Assembly: GCA_963841915.1 (NCBI GenBank)
Contig: CAWJEN010000006.1
Span: forward strand, 992,001 to 1,056,000
From: an uncultured Planctomycetota bacterium
GTDB taxonomy: Bacteria > Planctomycetota > Phycisphaerae > Tepidisphaerales > Tepidisphaeraceae
DNA: 64,000 nt
Direction: 5' to 3'
The notes beneath the pieces were generated by a model that worked only from the letters and a program-made list of their open reading frames with translations, made no database searches and had not been told where the DNA came from. Position numbers and translations under genes: made by a program. The first letter of the stretch is position 1. Each line of letters starts with the position of its first letter. Positions 48,373-63,457 of the stretch are shown here, piece by piece.

Positions 48373-50007
48373 CTAGCGTTGGCGGCCTTGGGTCTTCTCT
48401 TCCGTTTCGTCATCCTTCCGCCTCGGCCGCAATGTGAGGCGCATCGGCACGTCGCCGAACTCCGTCTCGTCCCTCAGGCGGTTGATCAGGAACCGGCGGT
48501 AGCTCTCGTCGAACAGGTCCGGATCATTCACAAACAACACGACGTGCGGCGGATTCGTCCTGACCTGCGTCGCGTAGAAGACCTTGGGCCGCTTGCGACC
48601 GCCCTTTCCTCCGCCGGGTGTCCGGGCGGCCAGAGCTCGCTCAATCGCTCGATTCAGCTCCCCGGTGCCGATGCGAGACGAAGCTGCCTTGTGCAGGCTC
48701 CTACACGCATCGAGCAAGGCTGCCACATTTCGACCTTCGTTGGCTGAGATGAACGCAATCGGGGCAAATGCCAGTCCGGGCACCTCTGCCTCCAGGTAGT
48801 CCCGGTACTCGTCCATCAGGTCGCCGTCCCTCGGCATCGGTTGCTTGGTGTCTGCCGCCTCGTCGCGACGCAGCTTCCGGGCCAGGTCCCATTTGTTGAC
48901 CACGACGATCGTCGGTTTCATCTCGTCGGCCACGTACTGGCCGAGCTTTTTGTCCGGTTCGCTCACGCGCAGCGTCGCGTCGGTAAGCATCAGCACCACG
49001 TCGGCCCGCCTCACGGAGCGTTGAGCCCGGTGAAAGCTGTAGAATTCGACGTCGGTGCTGACCATGTGCCGCTTCTTCCGCACGCCTGCCGTGTCGATGA
49101 CGGTCATGGTGCGGCCGTCCTTCTCGAAGATCACGTCGACGCTGTCTCGCGTGGTGCCGGCCACTTCGCTGACGATGACGCGGTCTCCGCCGCCCTCTTC
49201 TTCATTGAACAAACGGGCGATCGCATTGACGAGCGTGCTCTTGCCGGCGTTGCGCTTGCCGACGATGGCGATCTTGATGTCCGGCACCGGCGGGTTCCGT
49301 GGTGCGTCGGCCAGTTCGATGTTCTCGCTGATCACGTCGGCGATGCGCCTGACGTTGCGGCCGGTCGTCGCGCTCACCGCCATCGGCGTGCCAAATCCAA
49401 GGCGGCTGAAGTCGGCGATGTTCAGGTCGTACTTCTCACCGTCGGCCTTGTTGGCAATCGGAACCACAGGCCGCCCGGTCCGGCGAAGCAGGTCAGAGAT
49501 CATCTCGTCGCCCGCCAGCGGCCCCGTGTGGGCGTCGAGCAGGAAGAACATCAGGTCCGCCCGCTTCATGGCCGTCTCAACCTGGTCCTTAATGTGCTGC
49601 GTCAGGCCTTGGGAGTCCTCGAACCCGTAGCCGCCCGTGTCGACGAGTTGCACCCAACGCGGGCCGTCGTCGGTGTCGATTTCAAGCGGAATGCTAACGC
49701 GGTCGCGCGTCACGCCCGGTTGATCCTGCACGATGGCTACGCGCTTGCGGACAAGGGCGTTCAACAGCGACGACTTGCCGACGTTGGGCCGACCGACAAT
49801 GGCAACCGTCGGGTACCGGATGGGCGGCGGCAAGTCCTCGGGCGGCATGTCGTCGGCCGCGTCTTCGTCCAGCAGGTCATCCTCGGATAACGAAGCGTCA
49901 TCCTCCGACAACGAAACGTCATCCTCGGGCAATGCCGCATCAGGCACTTCCGGTGCCTCCGCAGTGTCGTCTTGGTCTTGCGTCAGATCGGGCTCGGCAA
50001 CGGACAT
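48373..50007 (-). CDS. der: Ribosome biogenesis GTPase Der
   Basis: Two GTPase domains (GRPNVGKSS/VTRD/DTGG/NKAD and GKRNAGKST/TTRD/DTAG/NKWD) plus a KH-like C-terminus. Confidence 0.95.
   Translation of the reverse strand: MSVAEPDLTQDQDDTAEAPEVPDAALPEDDVSLSEDDASLSEDDLLDEDAADDMPPEDLPPPIRYPTVAIVGRPNVGKSSLLNALVRKRVAIVQDQPGVTRDRVSIPLEIDTDDGPRWVQLVDTGGYGFEDSQGLTQHIKDQVETAMKRADLMFFLLDAHTGPLAGDEMISDLLRRTGRPVVPIANKADGEKYDLNIADFSRLGFGTPMAVSATTGRNVRRIADVISENIELADAPRNPPVPDIKIAIVGKRNAGKSTLVNAIARLFNEEEGGGDRVIVSEVAGTTRDSVDVIFEKDGRTMTVIDTAGVRKKRHMVSTDVEFYSFHRAQRSVRRADVVLMLTDATLRVSEPDKKLGQYVADEMKPTIVVVNKWDLARKLRRDEAADTKQPMPRDGDLMDEYRDYLEAEVPGLAFAPIAFISANEGRNVAALLDACRSLHKAASSRIGTGELNRAIERALAARTPGGGKGGRKRPKVFYATQVRTNPPHVVLFVNDPDLFDESYRRFLINRLRDETEFGDVPMRLTLRPRRKDDETEEKTQGRQR
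49876..49938. repeat. 21-bp imperfect tandem repeat x3 in the der 5' extension
   Basis: GTCATCCTC-led units encoding AALPEDD/VSLSEDD/ASLSEDD. Confidence 0.7.
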
Positions 50008-50029
50008 GCCCGAGTCTATCGCAATTTAG

Positions 50030-51061
50030 TTATTGGAAGCCGCCGAACAGGACGATCGGGCCTGAAGGCACGGCCACGCCGCCGGCCGGCTCAAGGCTGA
50101 CGGCAATCCCGCCGAGCGATTCGGGCAACTCCTGCAGCGCCTGCACGTTGAGCGTGCCGCTACCCGTCTCATCGACCTTGAACGTCCCCAGCGGAACCGG
50201 ACCGCCTTTACCGACGATTGCCCACGCCTGGTACGTCTGCTCCGCAGCCGGCGGCGTGAGATTGCCCACGTCCAGCCGCAGCCTGCCTTCGCCGCGGCTC
50301 AAGACCACGTTGCCCGTCGCCTGACGCCTGGCTTCAGTACCTTCCAAGCTCGCCAGGAGCGTTTCAGGGATCATTGCCAGCCGAACCGCGTCGTTGGCAG
50401 CCGCGACCTGCGTCGAAAGCTCATCCAGCTGATTTTCAGCGTCGGCGAACTGTCCTCGAAGCTGGCCGACCCGGTCACGCAGCCGTCCGACCTCTGCTTG
50501 AAGCAGTTCGACAGCCGTGCCCTGGTTCTCCGCCAGCACATTGGCCTCACGAAGGGATTGCTGGGCGGCGTCGAGTTCAAGTTCAGCTTCCGCTGCCGCA
50601 GCAGCCCTCGCATCACGGGCGTCGCGTACCAGCACAAGATCGCCCTGCAGTTGTTCAACAATTTCTGTGAGCGTGTCAGCCTCCTGACGTGAGACTGCCA
50701 ACTGCCTGCTCGTCGAACTCGACCGCACCAGCAGGAAGGTCGAGAGCCCCAAAAGGCCCACCACGAGCAACGCCGCCACGGCCGGTAGCCACCATCGCGT
50801 CAACGGAACGGTGGACTTCCGCGTGCTGATTTGCCCGCGAAGTCGCTGCCATTGCATCTGTGTCACGCGGGCCGGCTGCGGCGCGTTGGCCAACGCGGCG
50901 GCGACCGCCTGGGCTTCTGCGAAGGCTGCGACTGCACGCGGATCGCCTGACTCCAACAGGCCCACGGCCTGATGCACCTCGGCCTCGTCGGCAAGTTCGG
51001 TAGCGTAGAGCAGCATCAATTCGCTCAGCTCCATCGGGGTTCGGGCTTTGTCATACATCAA
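50030..51061 (-). CDS. Anti-sigma factor, RskA family
   Basis: N-terminal anti-sigma domain, one TM helix, coiled coil, YQAW...PVPLG...IAVSLEPAGG..PSGP. Confidence 0.85.
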   Translation of the reverse strand: MMYDKARTPMELSELMLLYATELADEAEVHQAVGLLESGDPRAVAAFAEAQAVAAALANAPQPARVTQMQWQRLRGQISTRKSTVPLTRWWLPAVAALLVVGLLGLSTFLLVRSSSTSRQLAVSRQEADTLTEIVEQLQGDLVLVRDARDARAAAAAEAELELDAAQQSLREANVLAENQGTAVELLQAEVGRLRDRVGQLRGQFADAENQLDELSTQVAAANDAVRLAMIPETLLASLEGTEARRQATGNVVLSRGEGRLRLDVGNLTPPAAEQTYQAWAIVGKGGPVPLGTFKVDETGSGTLNVQALQELPESLGGIAVSLEPAGGVAVPSGPIVLFGGFQ

Positions 51062-51723
51062 GCCATCTCCTCCCCCGGCCGATGGCCGAACAACGCGCTT
51101 CTGATCTTCAAAAGGCCACGACGAATGTGTCCTTTCACAGTTCCAATCGGCGTTCCGGTCAGCTCGGCGATTTCCTTGTGAGTCAGACTGTCGTAAAACG
51201 CTAATTCTAGCGAACGCCTTTGGGCGTCCGGTAGCGTGTCCAGCGCTCCCAGAACAGCCTGTCGCAGTTCGTCCTGCTCGGCAGGATCGCCCGCTGGTTG
51301 ATCCGACTTCTCAGACGGAAGATGCCCTTCGTAGGGCACAGTTTGATGATCACGGCGTCGCAGGCGATCGAGACATCGACTGCGGGTGATCAATAGCAGA
51401 TACGAACGTGGACGGCCGCGGGATGCCGAGAATCTCGAACATTTCTCCCACACCTCCAGAAACACCTCGTTGACCGCGTCTTCGGCCTCGTGCTGATCCC
51501 TCAACATCCGCCGGGCCAGCCCCAGCATGAGCGGGCCGTGACGATGGAACAACGTTTCGAGCGCACTTACATCTCCGGCCACCATGCCGTCGAACAGTTG
51601 ATGATCGTCCCTGGCGTCTTCCACGTCTTCCGCGACCTTGCCGCGGGGGCAGCCTACACAAAGCAGGACGTTTGGGAAGGTCCAGCTTAGCCGACCGGCT
51701 AAGAGTGCAATGACGGCGGGCAC
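51058..51723 (-). CDS. ECF sigma factor (SigK-like); true start probably near 51624
   Basis: AEDAVNEVFLEVW, ITRSRCLDRLR, LAFYDSLTHKEIA...PIGTVKGHIRRGL; coupled to the RskA gene. Confidence 0.88.
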   Translation of the reverse strand: MPAVIALLAGRLSWTFPNVLLCVGCPRGKVAEDVEDARDDHQLFDGMVAGDVSALETLFHRHGPLMLGLARRMLRDQHEAEDAVNEVFLEVWEKCSRFSASRGRPRSYLLLITRSRCLDRLRRRDHQTVPYEGHLPSEKSDQPAGDPAEQDELRQAVLGALDTLPDAQRRSLELAFYDSLTHKEIAELTGTPIGTVKGHIRRGLLKIRSALFGHRPGEEMA

Positions 51724-52013
51724 GTCGCTTCCGTGCGTCCCACTAAGCTGCGGACGGACACCCTCGAGGTCAGCGAAGCCCCTTACGCCCCCTGAATCGG
51801 GTTGAGCAAGACCCCGAAAGGCGATCGCGTTTTGTCCCTTTGCCGCGCGTCTGCCCTAGCGTATGTTGCGTACTCATGGTGCAGGAGATCCCGATTCGAT
51901 CGGCAGGTCTCGGCAGTATTACTGCGTCGCCTGTGTGGGTGACAAGTGACATGAGAAGACACCTACGGATCGTCGTGCCGCACGGGCTCGGCACCGGAAT
52001 GCGGAGAAATAGC

Positions 52014-52904
52014 ATGAAAACCCAGATTCTTTTGGCCGCCACAGCGGCCGCTATCGCGAGTATGCCGGCTTCGGCCGACATCATTTATGGCCTGACGACG
52101 CAAAACAGCATTGCGGTCATCGACAGCGCCATGCCGAGCGACTCGATTGACGGCGGCTTCGTCATGGGCCTCGGCCAGAACGAGAACCTGCTCGAGATCG
52201 ACTACCGCCCCGGCACCGGCGAGCTGTACGCGATCAGCAGCCAGGACAACGTCTACACGATTGACCTGAACTCGTTCGAGGCCAACCTCGTCGGCAACTT
52301 CACCCCGCCGAGCCTGCGTGGCACGAGCTACGCCTTCGACTTCAACAACGCCTTCGATGGTGGCAGCGGCCTTGCCGCCGACATCGGCCGCTTCGCTCGC
52401 ATCATCAGCGACACCGACAACAACCGCGTTATCGACGGTGACACCGGTCAGTACCTCGGCACCCCCGAGAAGACCCCGGTCTTCTACCCGGCAGGTGACC
52501 CGAGCTTCGGCGTCAACCCGAACATCGTCGGCATCGGCTACACGAACGCCTTCCCCGGCGCTCAGAGCACCCAGCAGTACGGCATCGACCGCGCCACGGG
52601 CAACCTCGTCACCGTCGCCAACAACGCCGGCACGCTCAACACCGTTGGCAGCCTCGGCGTCACCGGCTTCACCAACGAGGCCGAGCTGGACATCTCGGGC
52701 GACAACGTCGCCTTCGCTGTCCTGCAGAACGGCCCCAGCAGCGTCCTGTACACGGTCGATCTCGGCACGGGTGCAGCCACGCCGCTCGGCGACTTCGCCA
52801 GCGGTGACCTGATCCGCAGCCTCGCTGTCGTTCCGGTTCCGGAGCCGACAACCGCCGCCGTCCTGGGCCTCGGTGCCCTCGGCATGCTGCGTCGCCGTCG
52901 CTAA
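52014..52904 (+). CDS. DUF4394-like PEP-CTERM protein
   Basis: Signal peptide; IDYRPGTGELYA, AFDFN, YTNA, YGID, LNTVGSLGV; C-terminal VPEPTTAAVLGLGALGMLRRRR. Confidence 0.8.
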   Translation: MKTQILLAATAAAIASMPASADIIYGLTTQNSIAVIDSAMPSDSIDGGFVMGLGQNENLLEIDYRPGTGELYAISSQDNVYTIDLNSFEANLVGNFTPPSLRGTSYAFDFNNAFDGGSGLAADIGRFARIISDTDNNRVIDGDTGQYLGTPEKTPVFYPAGDPSFGVNPNIVGIGYTNAFPGAQSTQQYGIDRATGNLVTVANNAGTLNTVGSLGVTGFTNEAELDISGDNVAFAVLQNGPSSVLYTVDLGTGAATPLGDFASGDLIRSLAVVPVPEPTTAAVLGLGALGMLRRRR

Positions 52905-53118: not shown

Positions 53119-53730
53119 TCAGTCCTTTTCCCGCCGGACGCCGAGTTCGCGGGCGATTTCGCCGTCGAGTTTGTCGAGCTGGCTGAGTTCTTCCTGTTCC
53201 TCTGCCACGACGTCCGCCTCGATCATGCGGTCGATTTCGTCGTCGGTCACCAGATCGTCTCGACTGCCGGCCGCCGCGGGGTCGGCCGAGCCGCCCTGCT
53301 CCATGGCGTCGAGGAACAGGTCCATCCGCTCTTCCATGCTGCCGGCCTGGCTGACGGCTTTCTCCCAGTCGGCCTGCGTCTTGGTCAGATCCAGCTCACC
53401 GAAACTGCGACCGATCTCGCGGGCGATGACGTTCATGCTCTCGGCAAACTCTCGACCGGCCTCGGCCTGCTTCTGGATGAGCATCGCGTTCTTCATGCTC
53501 AGCAATTGCCGCTCGAGCATCTTCCGCACTGCCGCAGTCCGCTTGAGGCTGCCGCGGATGAATTGGTACTGCTGCTCATCGCCGACGCGTTTGGCCTGCC
53601 GGGCGTTCTTGAGAAAGTCCTCGCCGAAGCGTTCCTGTTGTTTGATGGAACGCTCGATTGACCGCAGCGACTGCCGCAGCCGCATGTCCCGCTCGACGCG
53701 GCGTTCTTCTTTGCTTTTGAACAGGCCCAT
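53119..53730 (-). CDS. ESCRT-III-like protein (Vps24/CHMP3-class appearance), 203 aa
   Basis: MGLF start; basic helical hairpin LRQSLRSIERSIKQQER...ARQAKRVGD; AGSMEERMD; acidic tail with EIDRMI. The family call is by eye only. Confidence 0.65.
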   Translation of the reverse strand: MGLFKSKEERRVERDMRLRQSLRSIERSIKQQERFGEDFLKNARQAKRVGDEQQYQFIRGSLKRTAAVRKMLERQLLSMKNAMLIQKQAEAGREFAESMNVIAREIGRSFGELDLTKTQADWEKAVSQAGSMEERMDLFLDAMEQGGSADPAAAGSRDDLVTDDEIDRMIEADVVAEEQEELSQLDKLDGEIARELGVRREKD

Positions 53731-53741
53731 GAGGCGACAGC

Positions 53742-54377
53742 TTACGAGCCGGCGGCCGCTTCTGCTTGACTGGACGATCCACCGGCCAGCTTCTTGCGCG
53801 TCGCTTCCTCTGCCTGTTGGTACGCCTCGTCTTCTTCCACGCTGCCGGCGTCGAGCTGGTCCCACAGATGCATGAGATCGTTACCGCTTTTGCCCAGCTC
53901 CGCCGACTCGATCGCCTCGCGGTCAGCCATGCCGCCGATCTCGAGCAGTTGATCAAGCTTTTCGGCGTACACCTCCTGCCCCACCGCGTCGCTTTCGAGC
54001 CACCCGCTGACCTTGGCCATGTCCTTGGCAGTGAGATTCAATCGGCCGGCCCCGCTGGACGACTGCTGATTTTCTTTCACCATCCGCAGCCGGGCGACCG
54101 TCATGAGCTCTTTGCTCCGCAGGTTCAGCTCGCGGGCGGCCATGAGCTGTTCCTGCGTCTTGAGCTCGAAGTCCTGGGCCAGCGTCTTTCGCAGCTCCGG
54201 CGAACTCGACTGCTTGCCCTGCCTGAAGATTTCGTGCTTCTTCTGGGCGATGTCGTCGACGTTCTTGAACAGCTTGTCGCGACGCTTGGTGATGAGGATC
54301 TCCTCACGACGAAGCTCGCCGCGCGACAGCTGGCTGAGCGTCTTGTTCCGCCCGAAGATGCGATCGATCAGGGCCAC
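53742..54377 (-). CDS. ESCRT-III/Snf7-like helical protein, 211 aa
   Basis: GTG start with GAGGA RBS; amphipathic MALIDRIFG N-terminus; basic N-half and acidic C-half; alignable with the C-terminal domain of the upstream gene. Confidence 0.55.
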   Translation of the reverse strand: MALIDRIFGRNKTLSQLSRGELRREEILITKRRDKLFKNVDDIAQKKHEIFRQGKQSSSPELRKTLAQDFELKTQEQLMAARELNLRSKELMTVARLRMVKENQQSSSGAGRLNLTAKDMAKVSGWLESDAVGQEVYAEKLDQLLEIGGMADREAIESAELGKSGNDLMHLWDQLDAGSVEEDEAYQQAEEATRKKLAGGSSSQAEAAAGS

Positions 54378-54391
54378 GGTGCTGCTTTTCC

Positions 54392-55939
54392 TCAGTTGGC
54401 CTCTGCCCGCCGGGCCGGAGCGGCCTCGGGCTCGTCTTCAACAGGTGCTTCGACCTCGAACGCCCCGGCTGCCGGGTCTTTGGCCTTTTGCTTCGTCACC
54501 GGAATCTCACGCTCGAACGATGGCGTCTCGGCCTCCTTCGCCTTCATCGACTCGGCCGTCAGCTCGGCGTAGAGACGTTCTTCCTCGTCGCTCAAGCCCG
54601 TCGCGCCCGTCGAACCACCGGCCAGCTCGTCGGCCATTTCGGTCGTCACCTGCAGGTCGGCCAAGACCTCCTCGGCCCGGGCGGCGTCGTTGGCCAGCTC
54701 GTCGGCCGTCGGTAGCTTGCCGGCGACGCTGCCGGCCCGGGCCAGCTCCAGGTTGTGCAGGTGCGTGCCGACGACGTTGATCTGCTGGTTCAGCACGCCC
54801 ACCGTCTGCCGGCGGCGGTCGACGTCTTTACCGAGCTGCACGAGCTGGCTCGTGATGCGACGCCTGGCACCAGTCGACTCCTCCGCCGCGAATGACGCTT
54901 TAAGTTCCCGCTCGCGATCCTCGAGCGTCGCCATCTCGTCGTATTGGCGGTCGCGCTGGCGCGACAACGCCGCCCGCTGTTCGGCGAGTTCTGACAAGCG
55001 GGCCTCGGGTGAGACGTTGGCCCCGAGCATGCGACGCAGACGGTCCATGGTCGAAAGTGTACCCGACGATGCCGCCTGCGACCCGGCCCCTTGCGACGTG
55101 CCAGTCAAACTTTCGTCACGGAACAACATCGGCACGCCGTTCACCGGCTTGACCCGCAACGGCTCGCCGCTCCGCGCCGCCCATTGCTGCGTCGCCAACG
55201 CCACCGCACCGATCGGCAGATTCAATTGGTCGGCCAAGTCGTCCAAAGCGACGGCACCGGTGAGCAGGTCGATCTTCCGCTTGTCCAACGCCGCCGCGAC
55301 ACGGGCCTGCCGCTCGGCAGGTGCTTCGGGATCGAGCATCGCGATCAATCGTCCCGCAGCCGCCGGACCGGTCAACGTGAACCCACCGGCGTCGTTGGGC
55401 TCGATCAGAATCGTCGGAGGCCCGTCGACGAAGCTGCGGGCGACCTGCCTCGCTTCCTCCGTGAATCCACTGCCGCTGAACAGGATCAGCGTCATCGGTC
55501 CGCCGAATTGGTCGGACGGCGTCTTGCTGTCGCCTGGTGGTGGCAGTTGCCCGACCCGACGGCGAACGTCGTCTGATCCCATCGGCACGGGCTCGCGGCC
55601 ACGTGCAAGATCATCCCAGGGCGGCATCGACGCGAATCGAACGTGCGCTACCGGTTGCCGAAACGCCAGCAACACCTGACGGCCCAGCGACGCATCGAGG
55701 CCTTCGCCGATCGGCATCGCGTCTTGAAGCTCAAAGTCCGGCCGATCGGCGGCGACGAGCGACTGCTTCACCGCAGCCGCCTGATTCCACCGCACCACAA
55801 TCGGCGAAAACGCCATCGCCGGCTTCGGCCCAAGCGTCGTCGGCACGACGAACGCCCGGTCCGACAACAACCCGGTAACGTGGCTCACCACGCGTCGTTC
55901 ACTCTCCCGCTGCTTTCTGGCGGCTTGCGTGTCGCTCAT
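54392..55939 (-). CDS. Multidomain protein: alpha/beta domain + winged helix + ESCRT-III-like C-terminal domain, 515 aa
   Basis: LILFSGSGFTEEA; HTH-like VALDDLADQLNLPIGAV...LRVKPVNGVPMLF; Ser/Gly linker; MDRLRRMLG followed by a long helical hairpin. Confidence 0.55.
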   Translation of the reverse strand: MSDTQAARKQRESERRVVSHVTGLLSDRAFVVPTTLGPKPAMAFSPIVVRWNQAAAVKQSLVAADRPDFELQDAMPIGEGLDASLGRQVLLAFRQPVAHVRFASMPPWDDLARGREPVPMGSDDVRRRVGQLPPPGDSKTPSDQFGGPMTLILFSGSGFTEEARQVARSFVDGPPTILIEPNDAGGFTLTGPAAAGRLIAMLDPEAPAERQARVAAALDKRKIDLLTGAVALDDLADQLNLPIGAVALATQQWAARSGEPLRVKPVNGVPMLFRDESLTGTSQGAGSQAASSGTLSTMDRLRRMLGANVSPEARLSELAEQRAALSRQRDRQYDEMATLEDRERELKASFAAEESTGARRRITSQLVQLGKDVDRRRQTVGVLNQQINVVGTHLHNLELARAGSVAGKLPTADELANDAARAEEVLADLQVTTEMADELAGGSTGATGLSDEEERLYAELTAESMKAKEAETPSFEREIPVTKQKAKDPAAGAFEVEAPVEDEPEAAPARRAEAN

Positions 55940-56058
55940 GCCGCCCCCTGATGTGGATCATCGAACCGTCGCCCGACGTAGCGCGTCGACGCGATGCCGA
56001 GGCACCCCATGGCCCACGCCCAGCCCGCAACACTCAGTAGCATGATCGCAAAGCCCAT
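55936..56058 (-). CDS. Putative 40-aa single-TM peptide
   Basis: MGFAIMLLSVAGWAWAMGCLGIASTRYVGRRFDDPHQGAA*; its TGA overlaps the ATG of the 515-aa gene. Confidence 0.4.
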   Translation of the reverse strand: MGFAIMLLSVAGWAWAMGCLGIASTRYVGRRFDDPHQGAA

Positions 56059-56098
56059 TCGTCGGCCAACACCGTAGGTCGCCCGTCGCCGCGGCAAG

Positions 56099-56968
56099 CT
56101 AGCCCAGTGCTTCCGTCGTCGGCGTGACCCGGCCGCACCGCGGGCAGAACGTTGCATCGACCGGAAGCTCGGCCCGACAGTCCTCGTGCGGACAATGCCG
56201 TGCCCGCCCGACCATCGCCGGCACCGCCTGCTTGGGCCGCTTGTCCCGCACGCGGCCGCGGAGCACGACGCCGAGCCTTTGCAACTGCTGCCGATCCGTT
56301 CGCGTCACGATGCGACGCAACGCGACGACGCTCACCGCCATGGGCAGCGCCCAGGTGATGCCCGTGTAGGCCAGCACGATTGCTGCCGTGGTCGGCACGA
56401 TGGCCATGCCGAAGTCCCATGCTTTGGGCGACTTCCAGGTTGCTTCGTCGAAGTGTCGGACAAAGCTCAACCCGGATCGGCCGTGCAGGTTGGCCCCAAC
56501 CCATGTGAGGAGAAATGAGAGGCCAATGAGCCCGAGAAACGCCATCTGCGGCGGCTTGGGCTCGCTGCCGCGGAACGGGTCGACGAGCCAAAGCCGCCAC
56601 AACGGCTCACCGATGACGAGGTGCATGACGGCAGCCAACCCCGCCGCCAACGCCACCGCCTGGGCGGCCAGTGCCAGCACCTTCGCTGCGTGATCCTTCG
56701 CCTCGTCACCCGCCTTGCCGTCGAGCCTGGCCCAGTCGGCGACATGGCCCAGCACGTCTCGTCGCCACCGAACCGCGGTTCTAAGACACGATGCGTTGAT
56801 CCACGCCGGCCCCAACCCGGCTGTCGCAAGCCCGAGAACAAACGTCTGCCACACGTGCCCCTGCGTCGCCTCGGGCGGCGTGCGATCCAGCGTCGTCAGC
56901 AACGTCGACGTCAGCAGAGGCGGCGATTCGCCTCCGTCTGTGGCGTGCATGTCGTCGAGCACTTTCAT
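56099..56968 (-). CDS. Membrane protein with C-terminal zinc ribbon
   Basis: 4-5 hydrophobic segments; CPHEDC...ATFCPRCG. Confidence 0.7.
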   Translation of the reverse strand: MKVLDDMHATDGGESPPLLTSTLLTTLDRTPPEATQGHVWQTFVLGLATAGLGPAWINASCLRTAVRWRRDVLGHVADWARLDGKAGDEAKDHAAKVLALAAQAVALAAGLAAVMHLVIGEPLWRLWLVDPFRGSEPKPPQMAFLGLIGLSFLLTWVGANLHGRSGLSFVRHFDEATWKSPKAWDFGMAIVPTTAAIVLAYTGITWALPMAVSVVALRRIVTRTDRQQLQRLGVVLRGRVRDKRPKQAVPAMVGRARHCPHEDCRAELPVDATFCPRCGRVTPTTEALG

Positions 56969-57046
56969 CGCGTTGTCTTGTCGATCTGAAGACGCAGCTG
57001 CCCACAACGTGCGACGCTCGGATGCAGCACCGCTCGCTTCGCAGGT

Positions 57047-57364
57047 TCAAGCCACAGCCGGTGCATTCGAGAGCATCCGACCGCAATGCCGACAGTACCG
57101 TGCGGCCTGTGGATTGATGGTCCGACAGACCGGATCAGGACACGCCCGACGACTTGGCGTCACGTCGCCCTTGCGGCGGCCGACGGTCGGCCAGATGGCC
57201 AGCTTGGTCATGATCATGACCAGGCCGCGGAGGGCGATCCAGCCGACCCAGAAGACGAATGCGACAGCCGTTAATGCCGTAATGCCTGCCGTGAACAGCA
57301 CGAACAAAGCGGCCTCCGGCGAGGCGAGCGGTTGGGCGAAATGGACGGTGAGGTCTGCGGACAT
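57047..57364 (-). CDS. Small membrane protein with zinc ribbon
   Basis: TM segment; CPDPVCRTINPQAARYCRHCG. Confidence 0.75.
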   Translation of the reverse strand: MSADLTVHFAQPLASPEAALFVLFTAGITALTAVAFVFWVGWIALRGLVMIMTKLAIWPTVGRRKGDVTPSRRACPDPVCRTINPQAARYCRHCGRMLSNAPAVA

Positions 57365-57376
57365 CGGACCGGTATC

Positions 57377-57724
57377 TTACGCGATGGGCGACGCCAAGGT
57401 GCGGCCGCAACGCCGACAGAATCGGGCACCGGCCGGATTCTCGCAGCTGCAACGCAGGTTGCCGCAAGGTACGCCCAGCGTCACCGGCGAGACCACGTAC
57501 CGCGACCGCCCGCCCAACGACGGGCCGATTCCGATCGCCCGGAACGGCAGCGCGATGACCCAGCCGACGGTGTACCCGATGCCCTCGAGCACGGTCGCCA
57601 GCAGCCTGATCGTGCCGCGAATGAGCAGAAGGAGACCGCCGATCGTCCAGATGAGCAGGTACGAGGCGAAGATCGACACGAGGACGACCCCGACCATGAG
57701 CACGATGGTTTTGACGATCATCAT
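57377..57724 (-). CDS. Small membrane protein with zinc ribbon
   Basis: TM segments; CGNLRCSCENPAGARFCRRCG; start overlaps the kinase stop. Confidence 0.75.
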   Translation of the reverse strand: MMIVKTIVLMVGVVLVSIFASYLLIWTIGGLLLLIRGTIRLLATVLEGIGYTVGWVIALPFRAIGIGPSLGGRSRYVVSPVTLGVPCGNLRCSCENPAGARFCRRCGRTLASPIA

Positions 57725-58818
57725 GCCTTGCCTCCTGTCGCGGCGGCTTTGGACCCGCTCAGGCCGTTGCCGCAGAACATGCAGTACGCGTCACCGGGCG
57801 CCGGGAACGCCCCGCACTTGCCGCAGCGACAGATCGCCTCGACGAGTTGCTTGCCGCACCGCATGCAGAACTGGTCGTTGGGGTCGGCCCTGCCGCCACA
57901 AGACGGGCAGCTGCCGGCCGCAAGCTGTTTCAGGCCTTCCGGCACCTGCGCTCGTGACGGGGCTGATGCACTGCCGATGAGCGCGGCCGCAAATGCGCCG
58001 GCAGAGGCAAAGCGGTTGTCGAGCCTCGCATAGCTACGCCGGAACGCTTCGTCCAAGTGCGACGGCACGTTCTTGACGAGATCGCTCGGCACGTCCGTAC
58101 CGGCCGGTCGTTCGCCCGTGAGCATCTCGAAGAGCATCACGCCACACGCGTACACATCGGCTCGGCCGTCGACGTTGGCGTTGGTCCGCTGCTCGGGCGC
58201 CATGTAGTCGAGGCTGCCGGCAACGCTGCCGGTGGCCGTGTTGTCGGTCGTGAAGACGAGACTGCCGGCCCCGCCCGTGGCAACGCCACTGGCCGCGTGC
58301 TCGGCGGCACCGAGGCCGAAATCAGTCAATTTCACCAGGCCGTCGCCGGCCAATCCCGGGCCGCCCGCTTTGAGGGCCTGCTCGTGGATGAGAACGTTCT
58401 CGGGCTTGACGTCGCGGTGGACGACGCCCCGCTCGTGGGCGTGGGAAAGGGCGGCCAGAACCTGGGCGAGGACAGCCGTCGCATCATCGGGCCTCATTCT
58501 TCCGCGGCCGATGAGGTCGCGCAGCGTCGTGCCCGGCACGTACTCCATGACGAGGTAAGGCGTCTCGGCAAACGGGTCGATGCCGATCGCCTTGACGATG
58601 CCGATGTGGTCGAGCCGGTGGGCCATCACGCCCTCACGACGCAACGCCTGGAGATAAGCCGGGTCGCGCGGCAGTTTGACGGCGGCAATCTGGTCGGCCC
58701 AGACGTGGTGGCGGGCCCGCCACACGTCGCCGAACGTGCCGTGGCCGACGGGCGACTCCAGCACCCACTCGGCGATACGGCTGCCTTCGCGTGGTTGTCG
58801 TGCGTCTGACTTTGGCAT
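57721..58818 (-). CDS. Hanks-type Ser/Thr protein kinase with C-terminal double zinc ribbon
   Basis: GHGTFG, AAVK, HRDVKPEN, DFG, YMAPE, DVYACG; CPSCG..FCMRCG..CGKCG..YCMFCG; no TM segment. Confidence 0.92.
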   Translation of the reverse strand: MPKSDARQPREGSRIAEWVLESPVGHGTFGDVWRARHHVWADQIAAVKLPRDPAYLQALRREGVMAHRLDHIGIVKAIGIDPFAETPYLVMEYVPGTTLRDLIGRGRMRPDDATAVLAQVLAALSHAHERGVVHRDVKPENVLIHEQALKAGGPGLAGDGLVKLTDFGLGAAEHAASGVATGGAGSLVFTTDNTATGSVAGSLDYMAPEQRTNANVDGRADVYACGVMLFEMLTGERPAGTDVPSDLVKNVPSHLDEAFRRSYARLDNRFASAGAFAAALIGSASAPSRAQVPEGLKQLAAGSCPSCGGRADPNDQFCMRCGKQLVEAICRCGKCGAFPAPGDAYCMFCGNGLSGSKAAATGGKA

Positions 58819-58966
58819 CGTGCTCACTTCGCGTCCGTGGTTCCCCGCACAAGGTACCACGAAAAGCGGACCATGGGCAGGGCAAAGTTGGCGCCAAACC
58901 CGGCGAAAGCTGTCGCAACTTTCGGCAGGTGGCTCGCCAGGCCTGTCGCCGAAGAGCCCCGCGGGG

Positions 58967-59362
58967 TCATCCGACGAGTCGGTCGGCGATGAAGTCGCAG
59001 GTCAGGAGATTGTACGCCGTGGCCAGCAGTGCCCCGACGATGAAAAACCCGATCGCGACGCCGCCTCCGACGCCAAAATCAAACATCCACCAGAGTCCGA
59101 GAAGTTCCAGCAGCGAGACCGTTGCGACCAGAAAAATGCCCGCACCGTTCGAATCGGCCCGCGCAACTTTGACGACCACGCCCACCAGCACCCAGGGCGT
59201 CACGGCGACGATGAGCACCCACGCCACGATCTTGCCCCCCGCGTCGAAGAACACCGCCCGCCCTTCGGGCCCCGCCTGCCAGAACGCGATAGCCGCCACA
59301 ACGACGGCCAGGAAGACGAACCCGCCGACGACCTTGCCGCCGATGCCTTTGAGGAAGTCCAT
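58967..59362 (-). CDS. Small 4-TM membrane protein
   Basis: 131 aa with four hydrophobic helices; co-oriented upstream of the kinase. Confidence 0.7.
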   Translation of the reverse strand: MDFLKGIGGKVVGGFVFLAVVVAAIAFWQAGPEGRAVFFDAGGKIVAWVLIVAVTPWVLVGVVVKVARADSNGAGIFLVATVSLLELLGLWWMFDFGVGGGVAIGFFIVGALLATAYNLLTCDFIADRLVG

Positions 59363-59450: not shown

Positions 59451-60434
59451 ATGCCGCGGACGCTCGATTACGCCCGGCAGCAGACATCTGGCGGGCCTCG
59501 ACTCGACGTGTGCGTCATCATCGCCGTTTGGGCGACGGCGTGCCTGCCCTTTCTGGCGATTCTCGGCGATGTTTTGCGTGGTCTGGCCAATTTGCTGACC
59601 GCGCTGGCTGCGGCGATTGCCGTCATAGCCGCGATCATCGGCATCGTGCGGACCTCGACGTTTCGCGGCATTCGGATCGTGACCGTCCATCGCCCGACCT
59701 ACGGCACCGGGCTGGCGGCAGCGTGCCTCATCATCGGCGGACTCGTTCTGCTGGCGAACCTGATGCCGACCTACAGCGGCCGATCGCCAAAGGCGGCAGC
59801 CATGGTCAAGTGCGGATTTAATCTGCGGCAGATCGGCTTTGCCGCACGGCAGTATGCCCAACTTTATGGAGAATTTCCGAGCGACTTCGAAACGCTGATC
59901 GAGTTAACGGATCTGTCAGCGGAGAGTCTCGTGTGCCCTCATCATGACCTTCCCCGCGGCCAAAGAGGGTTGACGTACAGCTATGTCCCGCTGATGCACG
60001 GACTGACGCCGGCATCACCACCCGATCTTGTGGCTGCGATCTGTCCCTCATACCTCCATCAAAACGACGGAGGCAACGTGCTCTATGCGGACGGGAGCGT
60101 GCGCTTCGAACGACATGACCTGTTGCCGATTCTGCTCGGTGAACAGTTCGCCCGGCCATCGACGCGGCCGGTCGGACAGGTTGACGACGGGCTGAGTGAT
60201 CGAGAAGACCCAGGCGCCGGTGCCACTGATTGGCCGCATTCTGATGCGGACAACCAGTGTCGGTGGCGTATCGCAGCCCAGCCCGGGAGACATAGTCTGC
60301 GTCACATATCCACGCGGGGAAACCGTGTCCGGTGGCGGCAGCGGCACGGTTTGCCCGCCGCAGACGGCGGCTCATACCGTGGCACCGCGGTTCGTCCGCC
60401 GGCCGAATTATTCCGAGTCGCCTGGTGCTTTTGA
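59451..60434 (+). CDS. Membrane-anchored H-X9-DG (DUF1559-like) protein
   Basis: Three TM helices, KCGFNLRQIG.A..QYA, LVCP, HQNDGGNVLYADGSV; the last ~70 codons lie in the repeat. Confidence 0.7.
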   Translation: MPRTLDYARQQTSGGPRLDVCVIIAVWATACLPFLAILGDVLRGLANLLTALAAAIAVIAAIIGIVRTSTFRGIRIVTVHRPTYGTGLAAACLIIGGLVLLANLMPTYSGRSPKAAAMVKCGFNLRQIGFAARQYAQLYGEFPSDFETLIELTDLSAESLVCPHHDLPRGQRGLTYSYVPLMHGLTPASPPDLVAAICPSYLHQNDGGNVLYADGSVRFERHDLLPILLGEQFARPSTRPVGQVDDGLSDREDPGAGATDWPHSDADNQCRWRIAAQPGRHSLRHISTRGNRVRWRQRHGLPAADGGSYRGTAVRPPAELFRVAWCF

Positions 60435-60851
60435 TTGGGCCTGGTGCCACTGATTGGCCGCATTCTGATGCGGACAACCAGTGTCGGTGACGTACCGCAG
60501 CCCGAGCCGGGTGACGTAGTCTGCGCCGTATGTCCACACGCGTAAACCATGTCCGGCGGCGGCAGCGGCACGGTTTGCCCGCCGCAGACGGCGGCTCATA
60601 CCGTGGCACCGCGGTTCGTCCGCCGGCCGAATTATTCCGAGTCGCCTGGTGCTTTTGATTGGGCCTGGTGCCACTGATTGGCCGCATTCTGATGCGGACA
60701 ACCAGTGTCGGTGACGTACCGCAGCCCGAGCCGGGTGACGTAGTCTGCGCCGTATGTCCACACGCGTAAACCATGTCCGGCGGCGGCAGCGGCACGGTTT
60801 GCCCGCCGCAGACGGCGGCTCAAACCGTGGCACCGCGCTTCGTCCGCCGGC
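60219..60851. repeat. 224-bp tandem repeat (about 2.8 copies) of REP-doublet-like hairpin units
   Basis: Units start at 60219, 60443 and 60667 with GGTGCCACTGATTGG. Each contains an inverted GTGGCACC and two internal hairpins. Confidence 0.9.
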
Positions 60852-61060
60852 AGACACGTTGCGGGTCGCTCGGTGCCGCGGCATGTCTCATTGAGATACG
60901 TTGGCGGAACACGCGTTGCGCCGCGGCGGCCGCGGCGGCGCGTGTTGTAATCGGGCGTACGGTGTACGGCGGCGGACTTGTTTGTCCGTCCAAAAGCTGC
61001 ACGGCGAATAACATTTTTAACGCGTGGCCGACGACCCGCCGACGTACTCGGCGGAGTCGA

Positions 61061-61252: not shown

Positions 61253-63187
61253 TTACTCCTTCTTAACTTCGTACTCGGCGTCGATGACGTCGTCGTCCTC
61301 TGGCTTGACGCGGTCGCCCTCGGCCTCGGGGGCGGCGCCTTCGGCAGAGGCGGTCGGGTCGGCATCGGCGCCACCGGCTGCGGCATAGGCGGCTTCGCCG
61401 ATCTTCATGACGGCCGTGTTGAGCGTCTCCAGCGCCTTCTTGATGACGTCGCCGTCGTCCTGGTCCTTGACCTCCTTGACGCGGTTGAGGGCGCTTTCGA
61501 CCTCGCTGCGGACGTCGCCGGGGATCTTGTCGGCGTCTTCGCCGTTGAGCAGTTTCTCGGTGCTCGTAATGGAACCGTCGGCCTGGTTGCGAAGGTCGAC
61601 GACCTCGCGACGCTTCTTGTCGGCCTCTGCGTTCTTCTCGGCGTCGGCCTTCATGCGCTCGATCTCTTCGTCGCTCAGGCCACCCGAACCCTTGACCTCG
61701 ATGGAGGCTTCCTTGCCGCTGGACTTGTCGACGGCCTTGACGCCGAGGATGCCGTTGACGTCGATGTTGAAGGTCACCTCGATCTGCGGCACGCCACGCG
61801 GCGCCGGCGGGATGTCGTTCAGGTTGAACTCGCCCAGGAGGCGGTTGTCCTTGGCAAACTCGCGCTCGCCCTGCAGGACGCGGATGGTGACCGTCGTCTG
61901 CGAGTCGGCAGCGGTGGAGAACGTCTCGCTCTTGCTGGTCGGGATGGTGGTGTTGCGCTCGATGAGCTTGGTCATCACGCCGCCCAGCGTCTCGACGCCG
62001 AGGGACAGCGGGGTCGCGTCGAGGACGAGGATGTCCTTGACGTCACCCTTGGCAATGCCGGCCTGGACGGCGGCACCCATGGCGACGACTTCGTCAGGGT
62101 TGACGCTCTTGTTCGGGTCCTTGCCGAAGATGTCCTTGACGAGCTTCTGAACGAGCGGCACGCGGGTCGAGCCGCCGACCAGGATGATCTCGTCGATCTC
62201 GCTCGGCTTGAGCTTGGCGTCTTCCAGCGCCTTCATGACCGGCTGCTTGATGCGATCGACGAAGGAGCCGATGAGGCCCTCGAACGCGCTGCGGGTCAGC
62301 GTCAGGTTGAGGTGCTTGGGACCATTTTGATCGGCTGTGATGAACGGCAGGTTGATGCCGGTCTCGACGTTGGAGCTGAGCTCCTTCTTGGCCTTTTCGG
62401 CAGCTTCCTTAAGCCGCTGCAGAGCCATGGCGTCGTTGCGGAGGTCGATGCCTTCCTGCTTCTTGAACTCGCCTGCGAGCCAGTCGATGATCTCTTCGTC
62501 AAAGTCGTCGCCGCCGAGGTGAGTGTCACCGGCGATGCTGAGCACCTCGAAGAGGGTCTCGTCGGCGTCCTTGTCGACATCGAGCACGGAGACGTCGAAC
62601 GTGCCGCCACCAAGGTCGAAGACGAAGATCTTGCCGCCCTTGTTCTTACCTTCGCCGTAGGCCAGCGCAGCCGCGGTCGGCTCGGGAAGCACGCGCAGGA
62701 CCTTCAGGCCTGCGATTTCACCGGCGTTCTTCGTGGCTTGACGCTGGGCGTCGTTGAAGTAGGCCGGCACGGTGATAACGGCCTCGTCGACCTTCTCGCC
62801 GAGGTAGTCTTCTGCGGTCTTCTTGAGGTCCTGGAGGATGAAGGCCGAGACCTGCTCGGGGGTGTATTCCTCGTTGCGGACCTTGATCTTGACGTAGTCC
62901 TCACCGCCGCCGGTGACTTCGTAAGGGACGGTCTTTTCTTCGCTGGCGACTTCGTTGTGCCGACGGCCCATGAACCGCTTGGCGCTGAAGACGGTGTTTT
63001 TGGGGTTGGTGACCTGCTGGTGGCGGGCCGGCTCACCGACGAGGCGTTCGCCCTTGTCGGTGAAGGCGACGACCGACGGCGTGATGCGGTTACCGCGGGA
63101 GTTGATGAGAACCTTGGGCTGATCGCCCTCCATGACGCTCACCACGCTGTTGGTCGTGCCGAGGTCGATTCCGATGATCTTGCTCAT
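61253..63187 (-). CDS. dnaK: Chaperone DnaK
   Basis: [46 protein letters not shown]. Confidence 0.98.
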
Positions 63188-63260
63188 AATGCTGTTGTTG
63201 GTCTTCGTTGTGGGTTGAGGCGTCGTCCGACGTGCGGCAACGCGGGTGCTGGCCCATATG

Positions 63261-63275
63261 GCAAGGGTCGTGCCA
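63261..63275 (-). promoter_or_regulatory. Sigma54 (-24/-12) promoter upstream of dnaK
   Basis: Minus strand TGGCACG-ACCC-TTGC with consensus spacing, about 75 bp upstream of the ATG. Confidence 0.65.
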
Positions 63276-63307
63276 CACCTGAAACCGGCGTGAGGCCGCG
63301 TGAGGGG

Positions 63308-63325
63308 CGGTTCCACGTGGAACCG
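63308..63325. promoter_or_regulatory. parS-like palindrome in the dnaK-icd intergenic region
   Basis: CGGTTCCACGTGGAACCG, a perfect 18-bp palindrome. Confidence 0.6.
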
Positions 63326-63457
63326 TGGCAGCACGGGCATGAACCGCTGCCACTATGGCGGTCGGGGCAGGACGTCTAAGCCATTGGCAAAGCCGTGTTG
63401 GAGGATCAGAACGAGGTTCCGACCGGTCGTGGTTGACGGGCGGCGTGGCCGCCGTAG

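Follow-up and report, generated by a model that had tools for sequence, protein, structure and literature searches.

Archaeal ESCRT loci carry winged-helix proteins, kinases, SPFH proteins and zinc ribbons, the same kinds of partner as those described below (PMC11188069). In the euryarchaeal 'Main' and 'Meth_adaptin' clades (Makarova et al. 2024, PMC11188069/PMC10936438), ESCRT-III is accompanied, as here, by an MIT-AAA ATPase, by a Ser/Thr kinase and by a protein that ends in a winged helix, and one clade shares SPFH-coiled-coil and zinc-ribbon proteins with our system, a likeness by kind. According to a 2025 review, an ATPase of this type appears to be absent in bacteria (PMC7619361). The portion of Ravi et al. 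2024 (PMC11237479) considered here traces a Vps4-like ATPase to several bacterial phyla, Planctomycetes among them, and also finds AAA ATPases next to some bacterial proteins of the Snf7 clade. In the operons of that portion, a TPR-6TM gene takes the place of snf7, or PspA occurs with a tandem AAA, an ABC transporter and OmpA; our locus shows none of these parts. A literature search returned no description of the nine-gene system that we report.

A conserved nine-gene cluster in Phycisphaerae

The window analyzed here is a 64,000-nucleotide stretch of DNA from an uncultured planctomycete of the class Phycisphaerae. At positions 53119..59362 it contains nine ORFs, all intact and all on the minus strand. 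Their order is the one given in the preliminary description, and the start/stop overlaps claimed there were confirmed, as two ATGA overlaps. The intergenic gaps from g1 to g9 are 148, -4, 12, 78, 40, -4, 14, and 11 bases. The first gene, g1 (58967..59362), encodes a 131-aa protein with four hydrophobic segments, consistent with a 4-TM protein. Searches of Pfam and NCBIfam gave no match for it, and jackhmmer joined it to the C-terminal membrane part of F7, a protein of ~285 aa encoded in larger versions of the operon. Next comes g2 (57721..58818), a 365-aa soluble Ser/Thr kinase (PF00069, E 4.5e-39) with a C-terminal double zinc ribbon (DZR, E 6e-4). Hydropathy predicts no TM segment in it, its GxGxxG, AVK, HRDVKPEN, DFG, and APE motifs are all intact, and relatives outside Phycisphaerae have a kinase-RDD protein in its place. 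Three membrane proteins with C-terminal zinc ribbons follow, namely g3 (57377..57724; 115 aa, two TM segments, Cys pairs, PF13240 E 2e-4), its paralogue g4 (57047..57364; 105 aa, one TM segment, DZR/Zn_Ribbon_1 E 0.005-0.006), and g5 (56099..56968; 289 aa, at least three TM segments, of which hydropathy gives three, Zn_Ribbon_1 E 0.002). The next ORF, g6 (55936..56058, start at 56058), encodes a 40-aa microprotein with a single TM segment and a GWxW motif, and its stop codon overlaps the start of g7 (-4). A small hydrophobic ORF lies 5' of g7 in 31 of 51 loci, and in 27 of these 31 it carries the GWxW motif; g6 is a real gene. The cluster ends with g7 (54392..55939; 515 aa), g8 (53742..54377; 211 aa), and g9 (53119..53730; 203 aa), the last of which is the most conserved gene.

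Conservation of the neighborhood across Phycisphaerae, proposed earlier as a check on the cluster, was found when 52 related loci, each with 7 kb or more of upstream sequence, were compared. Both g7 and g8 were present in 43 of them, a zinc-ribbon gene in 41, the kinase in 40, the 4-TM gene in 39, and g5 in 21; g9 stood alone in nine. Since the partner genes recur across these loci, the layout is not due to chance, and all nine are genuine genes that the class conserves. The operon is also present in Fontivita pretiosa (L096), a cultured strain with a closed genome.

ESCRT-III identity of g9 and its links to g8 and g7

Among PDB chains, profiles of the g9 family match CHMP2A (E 1.5e-6), CHMP3 (E 6.6e-6), Snf7 (E 3e-4), and CdvB (E 0.022), and no PspA/Vipp1 chain is among the matches listed at E<=10. 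Pfam Snf7 matches 20 of the 44 family members at E<=0.1, and one distant member (P0258) exceeds the Snf7 cut-off (33.2 vs 27.3 bits); the window's own g9 protein, searched alone, has no match in Pfam. An AF2 model of g9 (pLDDT 77.7) places helices at residues 7-49, 52-109, 116-146, and 163-202, that is, a long alpha1-alpha2 hairpin followed by further helices, as in the ESCRT-III core. When this model was searched with Foldseek, ranks 1-8 were all ESCRT-III proteins (best E 0.008), with Vipp1 at rank 20 and PspA at rank 26. A canonical MIM1 motif was found in the C-terminal helix of 0/44 g9-family members when applied strictly and of 5/44 when relaxed, and in none of the g8 or g7 C-terminal (g7-C) alignments, whose rows may be incomplete at their ends. 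Not all ESCRT-III subunits carry MIM1.

For g8, profile-profile comparison with the broad g9 family gave 87-89% (E 2-4e-6), and g7-C is joined to the ESCRT-III families by a link of 96%. These alignments run in register from the N-terminus over 154-169 columns, and an unrelated coiled coil of the same operons, used as a control, gave <=0.3%. An Atlas feature match (0.92) places g8 with a cluster containing 16% Snf7. Direct Snf7 matches were obtained neither for g8, which also had no PDB match, nor for g7-C, and Snf7 was absent among the families shown for either. The earlier interpretation as a whole is partly supported. Its view that the three proteins resemble Snf7/Vps24 rather than PspA holds directly for the g9 family, but only transitively, by profile links, for g8 and g7-C.

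The g7 protein is a fusion. Residues 1-200 weakly match a restriction-endonuclease-like alpha/beta fold, residues 205-280 form a predicted winged helix, and an ESCRT-III-like domain covers residues ~296-470; in relatives outside Phycisphaerae, the two halves are separate genes. The winged helix is single, and its Foldseek matches include a human ESCRT-II chain at rank 13 (E 0.13), surrounded by numerous winged-helix proteins that are unrelated. The preliminary description had assigned to all three proteins an amphipathic start and a basic-to-acidic charge layout. The charge layout stands, with a basic N-half and an acidic C-half in 44/44, 59/59, and 54/59 members of the three families, and amphipathic N-termini and amphipathic C-terminal helices are present. 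The amphipathic start of g7, however, is internal (~residue 296), because its N-terminal 280 aa are globular.

An MIT-AAA ATPase inherited together with g9

A search of the genome for an MIT-AAA ATPase, suggested at the outset, was successful: an MIT-like AAA ATPase gene lies at G000:C6:665527-666690, ~378 kb from the cluster and outside the window. A gene for an SPFH-coiled-coil-propeller protein (C6:976644-978158) also lies outside the window. In 18 of 20 chosen loci of the phylum, an MIT-AAA gene was located near the g9 homologue, and 11 of the 20 had two such genes. An ATPase beside ESCRT-III genes, which is the Vps4/CdvC criterion of Makarova et al., was seen in 12 of the 59 Phycisphaerae loci with 5 kb downstream. 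An MIT-AAA gene also follows the gene of a protein labelled Ca. Acetothermia by its source. Judged by sequence, the unlinked ATPase is orthologous to the operon-linked copies, with which it forms one clade (support 99) in a quick tree that contained no archaeal or eukaryotic references.

The ATPase contains a single classical AAA domain, whose Walker A/B motifs and arginine finger are intact. Its N-terminal profile matches the MIT domain of VPS4B over positions 10-82 (E 2.7e-4), MITD1, and VPS4A, with other MIT domains reaching 3.5e-6; TPR matches to the same profile span only ~25-35 residues each. Single members match weakly (MIT 3/40, TPR_2 10/40). Against the NCBIfam CdvC equivalog cut-off of 650 bits, nine operon-type ATPases reach 164-232, and CDC48 and PAN score alike. 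No Vps4_C domain was matched in this genome; one relative scores 22.3 bits against a cut-off of 21.3, and three lie under it. The relatives also have a second ATPase family, whose match to VPS4B begins at the MIT region and scores 264 bits.

Within the class, g9 and a strong MIT-ATPase match coincided: of 201 genomes, the 49 with one also had the other, including those in which the two genes are not linked. In the phylum, 60 of 301 genomes were positive for g9 and 61 for the ATPase, with 59 common to both. Of four intermediate MIT matches, three were examined, and each of these lies directly behind a divergent g9-like gene. Taken together, it is very probable that the ESCRT-III proteins have a dedicated MIT-AAA ATPase. 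In three families g9 is single-copy and present in every sampled genome (9/9, 7/7, 9/9). For the class, 152 of the 201 genomes gave no g9 match, and some families had no match at all (0/26, 0/19, 0/9), although the profile missed at least three divergent copies. Within the family of our bacterium, g9 and the ATPase were not found in 6 of 27 genomes (profile search; 92-97% complete). Five of these six were inspected; none had g8, and four retained an orphan g7 piece with eroded neighbors.

Compared with the euryarchaeal systems, the bacterial one has three to four ESCRT-III paralogues that have diverged, and often two ATPases that differ from each other; a nuclease-like fold precedes its winged helix, which is joined N-terminally to the ESCRT-III domain, and its SPFH protein is fused to a propeller-like region. 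The crenarchaeal division system CdvABC likewise comprises several ESCRT-III paralogues, one with a winged helix, and a single-ring MIT-AAA ATPase; this genome's ATPase aligns end-to-end with the CdvC model. However, the winged helix is N-terminal here and C-terminal in Cdv, the ATPase scores far under the CdvC cut-off, some close relatives have lost the system, and no CdvA-like gene was recognizable in the operon when the window's genes were compared with Pfam and NCBIfam models. The likeness to eukaryotic and Asgard ESCRT lies in CHMP3, CHMP2A, and Snf7 being the best sequence and fold matches of g9, and in the VPS4A/B-like MIT profile. Unlike in those systems, there is one winged helix rather than a tandem, indistinguishable from other winged-helix proteins, canonical MIM1 is missing, and ubiquitin, UEV, or ESCRT-I parts were not seen here. 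PspA/Vipp1 proteins belong to the same superfamily, and their loci can also include SPFH partners, but the present system has a dedicated MIT-AAA ATPase.

A proposed membrane-remodeling machine and its alternatives

We favor, with a probability of roughly 0.6, an ESCRT-III/Vps4-like machine that is dispensable, is linked to a kinase, remodels the inner membrane and has a role other than division. It would act at the cytoplasmic face of this membrane and would not be essential in every lineage. As the gene neighborhood suggests, the 4-TM protein, the zinc-ribbon membrane proteins, and the microprotein may mark the membrane site, and the zinc-ribbon kinase may switch assembly via phosphorylation. 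With its winged-helix adaptor and ESCRT-III domain, g7 would seed the filament, comparable to ESCRT-II and Vps20 in one chain. Onto it g8 and g9 would polymerize via their amphipathic N-termini and basic hairpins. The MIT-like AAA ATPase, relocated out of the operon in this lineage and inherited together with g9, would grip the C-terminal helix of one subunit, most probably g9, to remodel or dismantle the filament, so that a membrane neck is constricted and then sealed or cut. Its most probable effect would be to seal the inner membrane or to bud vesicles into the periplasm.

Of the three roles suggested initially (remodeling, repair, and division), division turned out to be the weakest. In an FtsZ-independent equivalent of Cdv, g7 would form a template ring, g8 and g9 would constrict, and the ATPase would drive scission. 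This genome has no tubulin/FtsZ match, and in Phycisphaerae, which do without FtsZ, fission proceeds by an unknown mechanism (PMC6952346). Three ESCRT-III paralogues with one ATPase parallel Sulfolobales (PMC11796394), and the universal presence of single-copy g9 in three families fits as well. Yet all planctomycetes lack FtsZ, whereas only a minority of the phylum's genomes matched g9, it was not found in whole families of the class, and the absence of g9 and the ATPase in six of the 27 same-family genomes argues against an essential division role. We therefore consider this reading unlikely. Equally unlikely is its wider form, that some FtsZ-less planctomycetes cut the inner membrane at division by a complete archaeal/eukaryote-type ESCRT pathway, replaced in other lineages, and that this pathway jointly comprises membrane adaptors, the kinase, a winged-helix ESCRT-II-like nucleator, three ESCRT-III subunits, and the Vps4-like ATPase.

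The patchy distribution with its lineage losses would also suit an anti-phage or conflict system, in which infection is sensed by the kinase and zinc ribbons, the membrane is sealed or ruptured by the ESCRT-III filament, and the nuclease-like domain of g7 binds or cuts nucleic acid. The kinase matches the PD-T4-6 and MAD6 models, and fusions to FtsK-, RuvB-, and NERD-type domains occur among distant g9-like domains. However, the PADLOC matches are generic (kinase, AAA, coiled coil), with none for g1, g3-g5, g8, and g9; gene order is stable class-wide next to housekeeping-like neighbors; the viral contigs searched held no relative; and the core strands of the g7 N-domain show no conserved D...(D/E)xK pattern, which makes such a function improbable. 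We give a slightly lower probability to diverged PspA/Vipp1-type stress-repair proteins acting without an ATPase, the linkage being incidental. A planctomycete PspA profile does match g9 (55%) and g7-C (22%), the genome has no other PspA match, and g7 persists alone in some genomes. Against this stand the coincidence with the ATPase in 49/49 genomes, the PDB and Foldseek results above, and the lack of any PF04012 match genome-wide. The family HMMs gave <=7.5 bits against 20 planctomycete PspA-like proteins, and PspA is no clear substitute, being matched in 6/49 positive and 26/152 negative genomes. It is very improbable that g8 and g7-C, or all three proteins, are generic coiled coils merely resembling ESCRT-III: the best PDB matches of g7-C are designed coiled coils, VIA is undiscriminating, and direct Snf7 matches are absent for both, but the in-register alignments and the coiled-coil control argue otherwise.

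With the ESCRT-III/Vps4-like machine as the preferred reading, about one fifth of the sampled Planctomycetota genomes have a conserved ESCRT-III operon of several subunits that is inherited jointly with an MIT-AAA ATPase. A Vps4-like motor is kept or lost along with filament-type genes, although reviews describe bacteria as being without such a motor. This bears on the age of ESCRT-III/Vps4, which may be older than the archaea or may have been transferred early between domains. It also names specific genes, available in a cultured strain whose genome is closed, for the shaping of the planctomycete inner membrane and for FtsZ-less division.

Layout and conservation of the nine-gene cluster

The cluster comprises nine intact ORFs (g1 to g9) on the minus strand of the window sequence, running from 59362 to 53119 with intergenic gaps of 148, −4, 12, 78, 40, −4, 14 and 11 bases. 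Four hydrophobic segments are present in g1; g2 encodes a Ser/Thr kinase whose catalytic motifs are intact and which also has a double zinc ribbon; g3 to g5 are membrane proteins with a zinc ribbon at the end, and g6 is a single-TM peptide of 40 aa. The layout given in the preliminary description, with its 4-TM, kinase, zinc-ribbon and small-peptide genes, was thus recovered. The Snf7 and PspA_IM30 matches that it had proposed to look for were not found when the sequences of g7 (515 aa), g8 (211 aa) and g9 (203 aa), the ESCRT-III-like genes, were searched one by one.

The flanking ORFs (48373-52904 and 61253-63340) resemble what we take to be a Der-type GTPase, a sigma/anti-sigma pair and DnaK, and include a DUF4394 PEP-CTERM protein; these flanks are not a defence island. 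Near-identical translated stretches occur in several frames at 60048-60900, and the sequence there suggests a tandem repeat (unit about 220 bases) that overlaps ORF 59451-60434 at its end; this ORF gave a weak DUF1559 match.

Among 3,419 candidates, 2,969 g9 homologues were found at E ≤ 0.001. The closest named relatives are labelled Tepidisphaerales, Tepidisphaeraceae or Planctomycetota, the best showing 76-86% identity, which makes Phycisphaerae the most likely class of the host. Of 197 related genome loci the best 80 were kept, and genes were counted in the 52 whose upstream sequence reached 7 kb or more. The neighbourhood proved conserved: g7 and g8 were present in 43/52 loci, a zinc-ribbon gene in 41, the kinase in 40, the 4-TM gene in 39 and a g5-type gene in 21, while g9 stood alone in nine. 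We consider g6 a real gene, because a small hydrophobic ORF precedes g7 in 31 of the 51 loci having a zinc-ribbon gene and g7, with a GWxW motif counted in 27. The cluster is also carried by a cultured strain, Fontivita pretiosa (L096).

Joint presence and loss of g9 and an MIT-like AAA ATPase

No Vps4-like ATPase had been seen in the window, and a search of the whole genome found one MIT-like AAA gene about 378 kb from the operon (G000:C6:665527-666690). A profile of the N-termini of the ATPases from the larger operons described below matched the MIT domain of VPS4B (positions 10-82, E 2.7e-4) and those of VPS4A, MITD1 and calpain-7; TPR and designed-repeat matches, mostly short stretches, outranked MIT in this search. 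Residues 11-385 of the genome's own ATPase aligned with the CdvC model at 216 bits, but the protein scored higher with CDC48 (232) and PAN (229), all cut-offs being missed. In a quick tree that left out archaeal and eukaryotic references, it clustered with operon-linked Phycisphaerae copies (support 99). Owing to this grouping and the MIT match, it would count as a Vps4 by the working criteria in the accessible part of Makarova et al. (PMC11188069), namely an MIT domain or ESCRT neighbours.

In counts drawn from incomplete genomes and non-independent relatives, with an MIT profile made from operon-linked genes, the g9 profile matched 49 of 201 class genomes and the MIT profile 67 at E ≤ 0.001. 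Comparison of the two lists showed that the 49 strong MIT genomes (E ≤ 2.5e-12) are identical to the 49 g9-positive ones. Four more scored 4e-9 to 9e-7, and in all three examined the ATPase gene immediately follows a divergent g9-like gene missed by the g9 profile. The last 14 matches were weak, mostly short and within long frames. The phylum sample (301 genomes) contained 60 g9-positive and 61 MIT-positive genomes, 59 being common to both.

In the window's family (27 genomes), 21 have g9 and the ATPase, mostly unlinked, and six have neither. Five of these six were examined: g8 was found in none and a g7 piece in four, three retaining the ESCRT-III half, with eroded neighbours. Since g8, g9 and the ATPase are lost jointly while g7 lingers, g8 and g9 fit as the ATPase-dependent part. 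The orphan g7 genes (L132:6612-8150, L133:7130-8596, L134:5872-7275, L135:7178-7852), one without the ESCRT-III half, come from genomes that yielded no g8, g9 or ATPase, and reflect either ongoing decay or a stand-alone role of g7.

Between g9 and the ATPase, a tiny ORF (L140:9426-9584) resembles the MIT-like domain at its start only; such ORFs occur in three genomes of one family (that of L140, G326 and G439). A 518-aa frame with three MIT-like repeats was seen at G010:C101:16699-17382, in a genome 66% complete and with no g9 match.

Larger and divergent operons

Twenty phylum loci were chosen from the 60 g9-positive genomes, favouring long contigs and variety. Their larger operon contains a g7-N gene in 18/20 and an MIT-like AAA gene in 18/20 (two such genes in 11), the ATPases forming two distinct families. 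An SPFH-coiled-coil-propeller gene was present in 13 loci, the propeller call resting on weak Pfam matches, a kinase anywhere in the locus in 12, and a g1-related membrane gene in six. The window's genome has its SPFH gene relocated (C6:976644-978158). At L046:10638-13835, two copies of one ATPase family flank g9, not one of each. Just ahead of the g9 homologue, three of the 20 loci (L031, L033, L047) carry a lipoprotein-like coiled-coil gene of ~200 aa (family F9), possibly a periplasmic partner.

A second, divergent version of the system (L160-L162) consists of a g9-like gene and, immediately after it, an MIT-AAA gene; two of the three loci also have a gene like F7 (a membrane protein of larger operons). 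It occurs in families that gave nothing with the main profile. Upstream of the divergent ESCRT gene, L162:166-1976 has the look of a four-helix accessory protein and a reverse transcriptase, presumably as in diversity-generating retroelements. On a 1.4-kb contig from beyond the phylum (source label Ca. Acetothermia), P0205 has an MIT-AAA gene immediately after it, and atlas clusters suggest a presence in Chloroflexota and Lentisphaerota as well. Some distant g9-like domains occur in fusions, with FtsK/SpoIIIE in P0209 and with a RuvB-like ATPase in P0240 and P0244, one of the latter two also having a NERD domain.

Relation to known systems and proposed role

In the accessible parts of these sources, ESCRT components are identifiable in archaea and not in bacteria, and the partners in archaeal ESCRT loci include wH, kinase, SPFH and zinc-ribbon proteins (Makarova et al. 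2024, PMC11188069); bacteria seem to lack a Vps4-like ATPase (2025 review, PMC7619361); and a long branch separates bacterial PspA/Vipp1 from archaeal/eukaryotic ESCRT-III (Liu et al. 2021, PMC8281802). The accessible text of Ravi et al. 2024 (PMC11237479) reports a Vps4-like ATPase in several phyla, Planctomycetes among them, and notes that certain bacterial proteins of the Snf7 clade occur in other contexts; in their system, however, snf7 is displaced by a TPR-6TM gene. Their Table S3 or web app could list the present proteins. No such system appeared in the accessible parts of PMC6952346, PMC8382908, PMC7203096 and bioRxiv 2022.11.08.515611, and a term search for 'ESCRT' in a 2025 Planctomycetota review (PMC12673574) gave no occurrence. 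A description of the operon was not found in the literature searched, which mostly excludes subscription papers.

At the sequence level, the preliminary reading as a Snf7/CHMP-type ESCRT-III operon holds, and is extended by a putative, co-inherited Vps4-like ATPase in bacteria. Judged by architecture, which is similar, the operon probably works like an archaeal ESCRT system, its Snf7/Vps4 assignment being one of likeness.

A role in division is possible: no FtsZ was seen in the window's genome, and according to the accessible part of PMC6952346 the mechanism by which Phycisphaerae divide is not known. The losses within the family and the patchy range of the system nevertheless argue against an essential division role. 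Support for a defence role is of a generic kind only. PspA, matched in 6/49 g9-positive and 26/152 g9-negative class genomes, does not clearly substitute for the system.

From the observed domains, gene linkage, joint presence and joint loss, we propose that the membrane adaptors and kinase would define a site and switch it, and that g7, using its winged helix and its ESCRT-III half, would seed a filament. This filament would be extended by g8 and g9 and turned over by the ATPase, which would grip a C-terminal helix. A canonical MIM1 was found in 0/44 g9-family members, so the predicted grip would be non-canonical. A cytoplasmic ESCRT filament cuts necks budding away from the cytoplasm; the system may therefore serve inner-membrane sealing or vesicle shedding into the periplasm.
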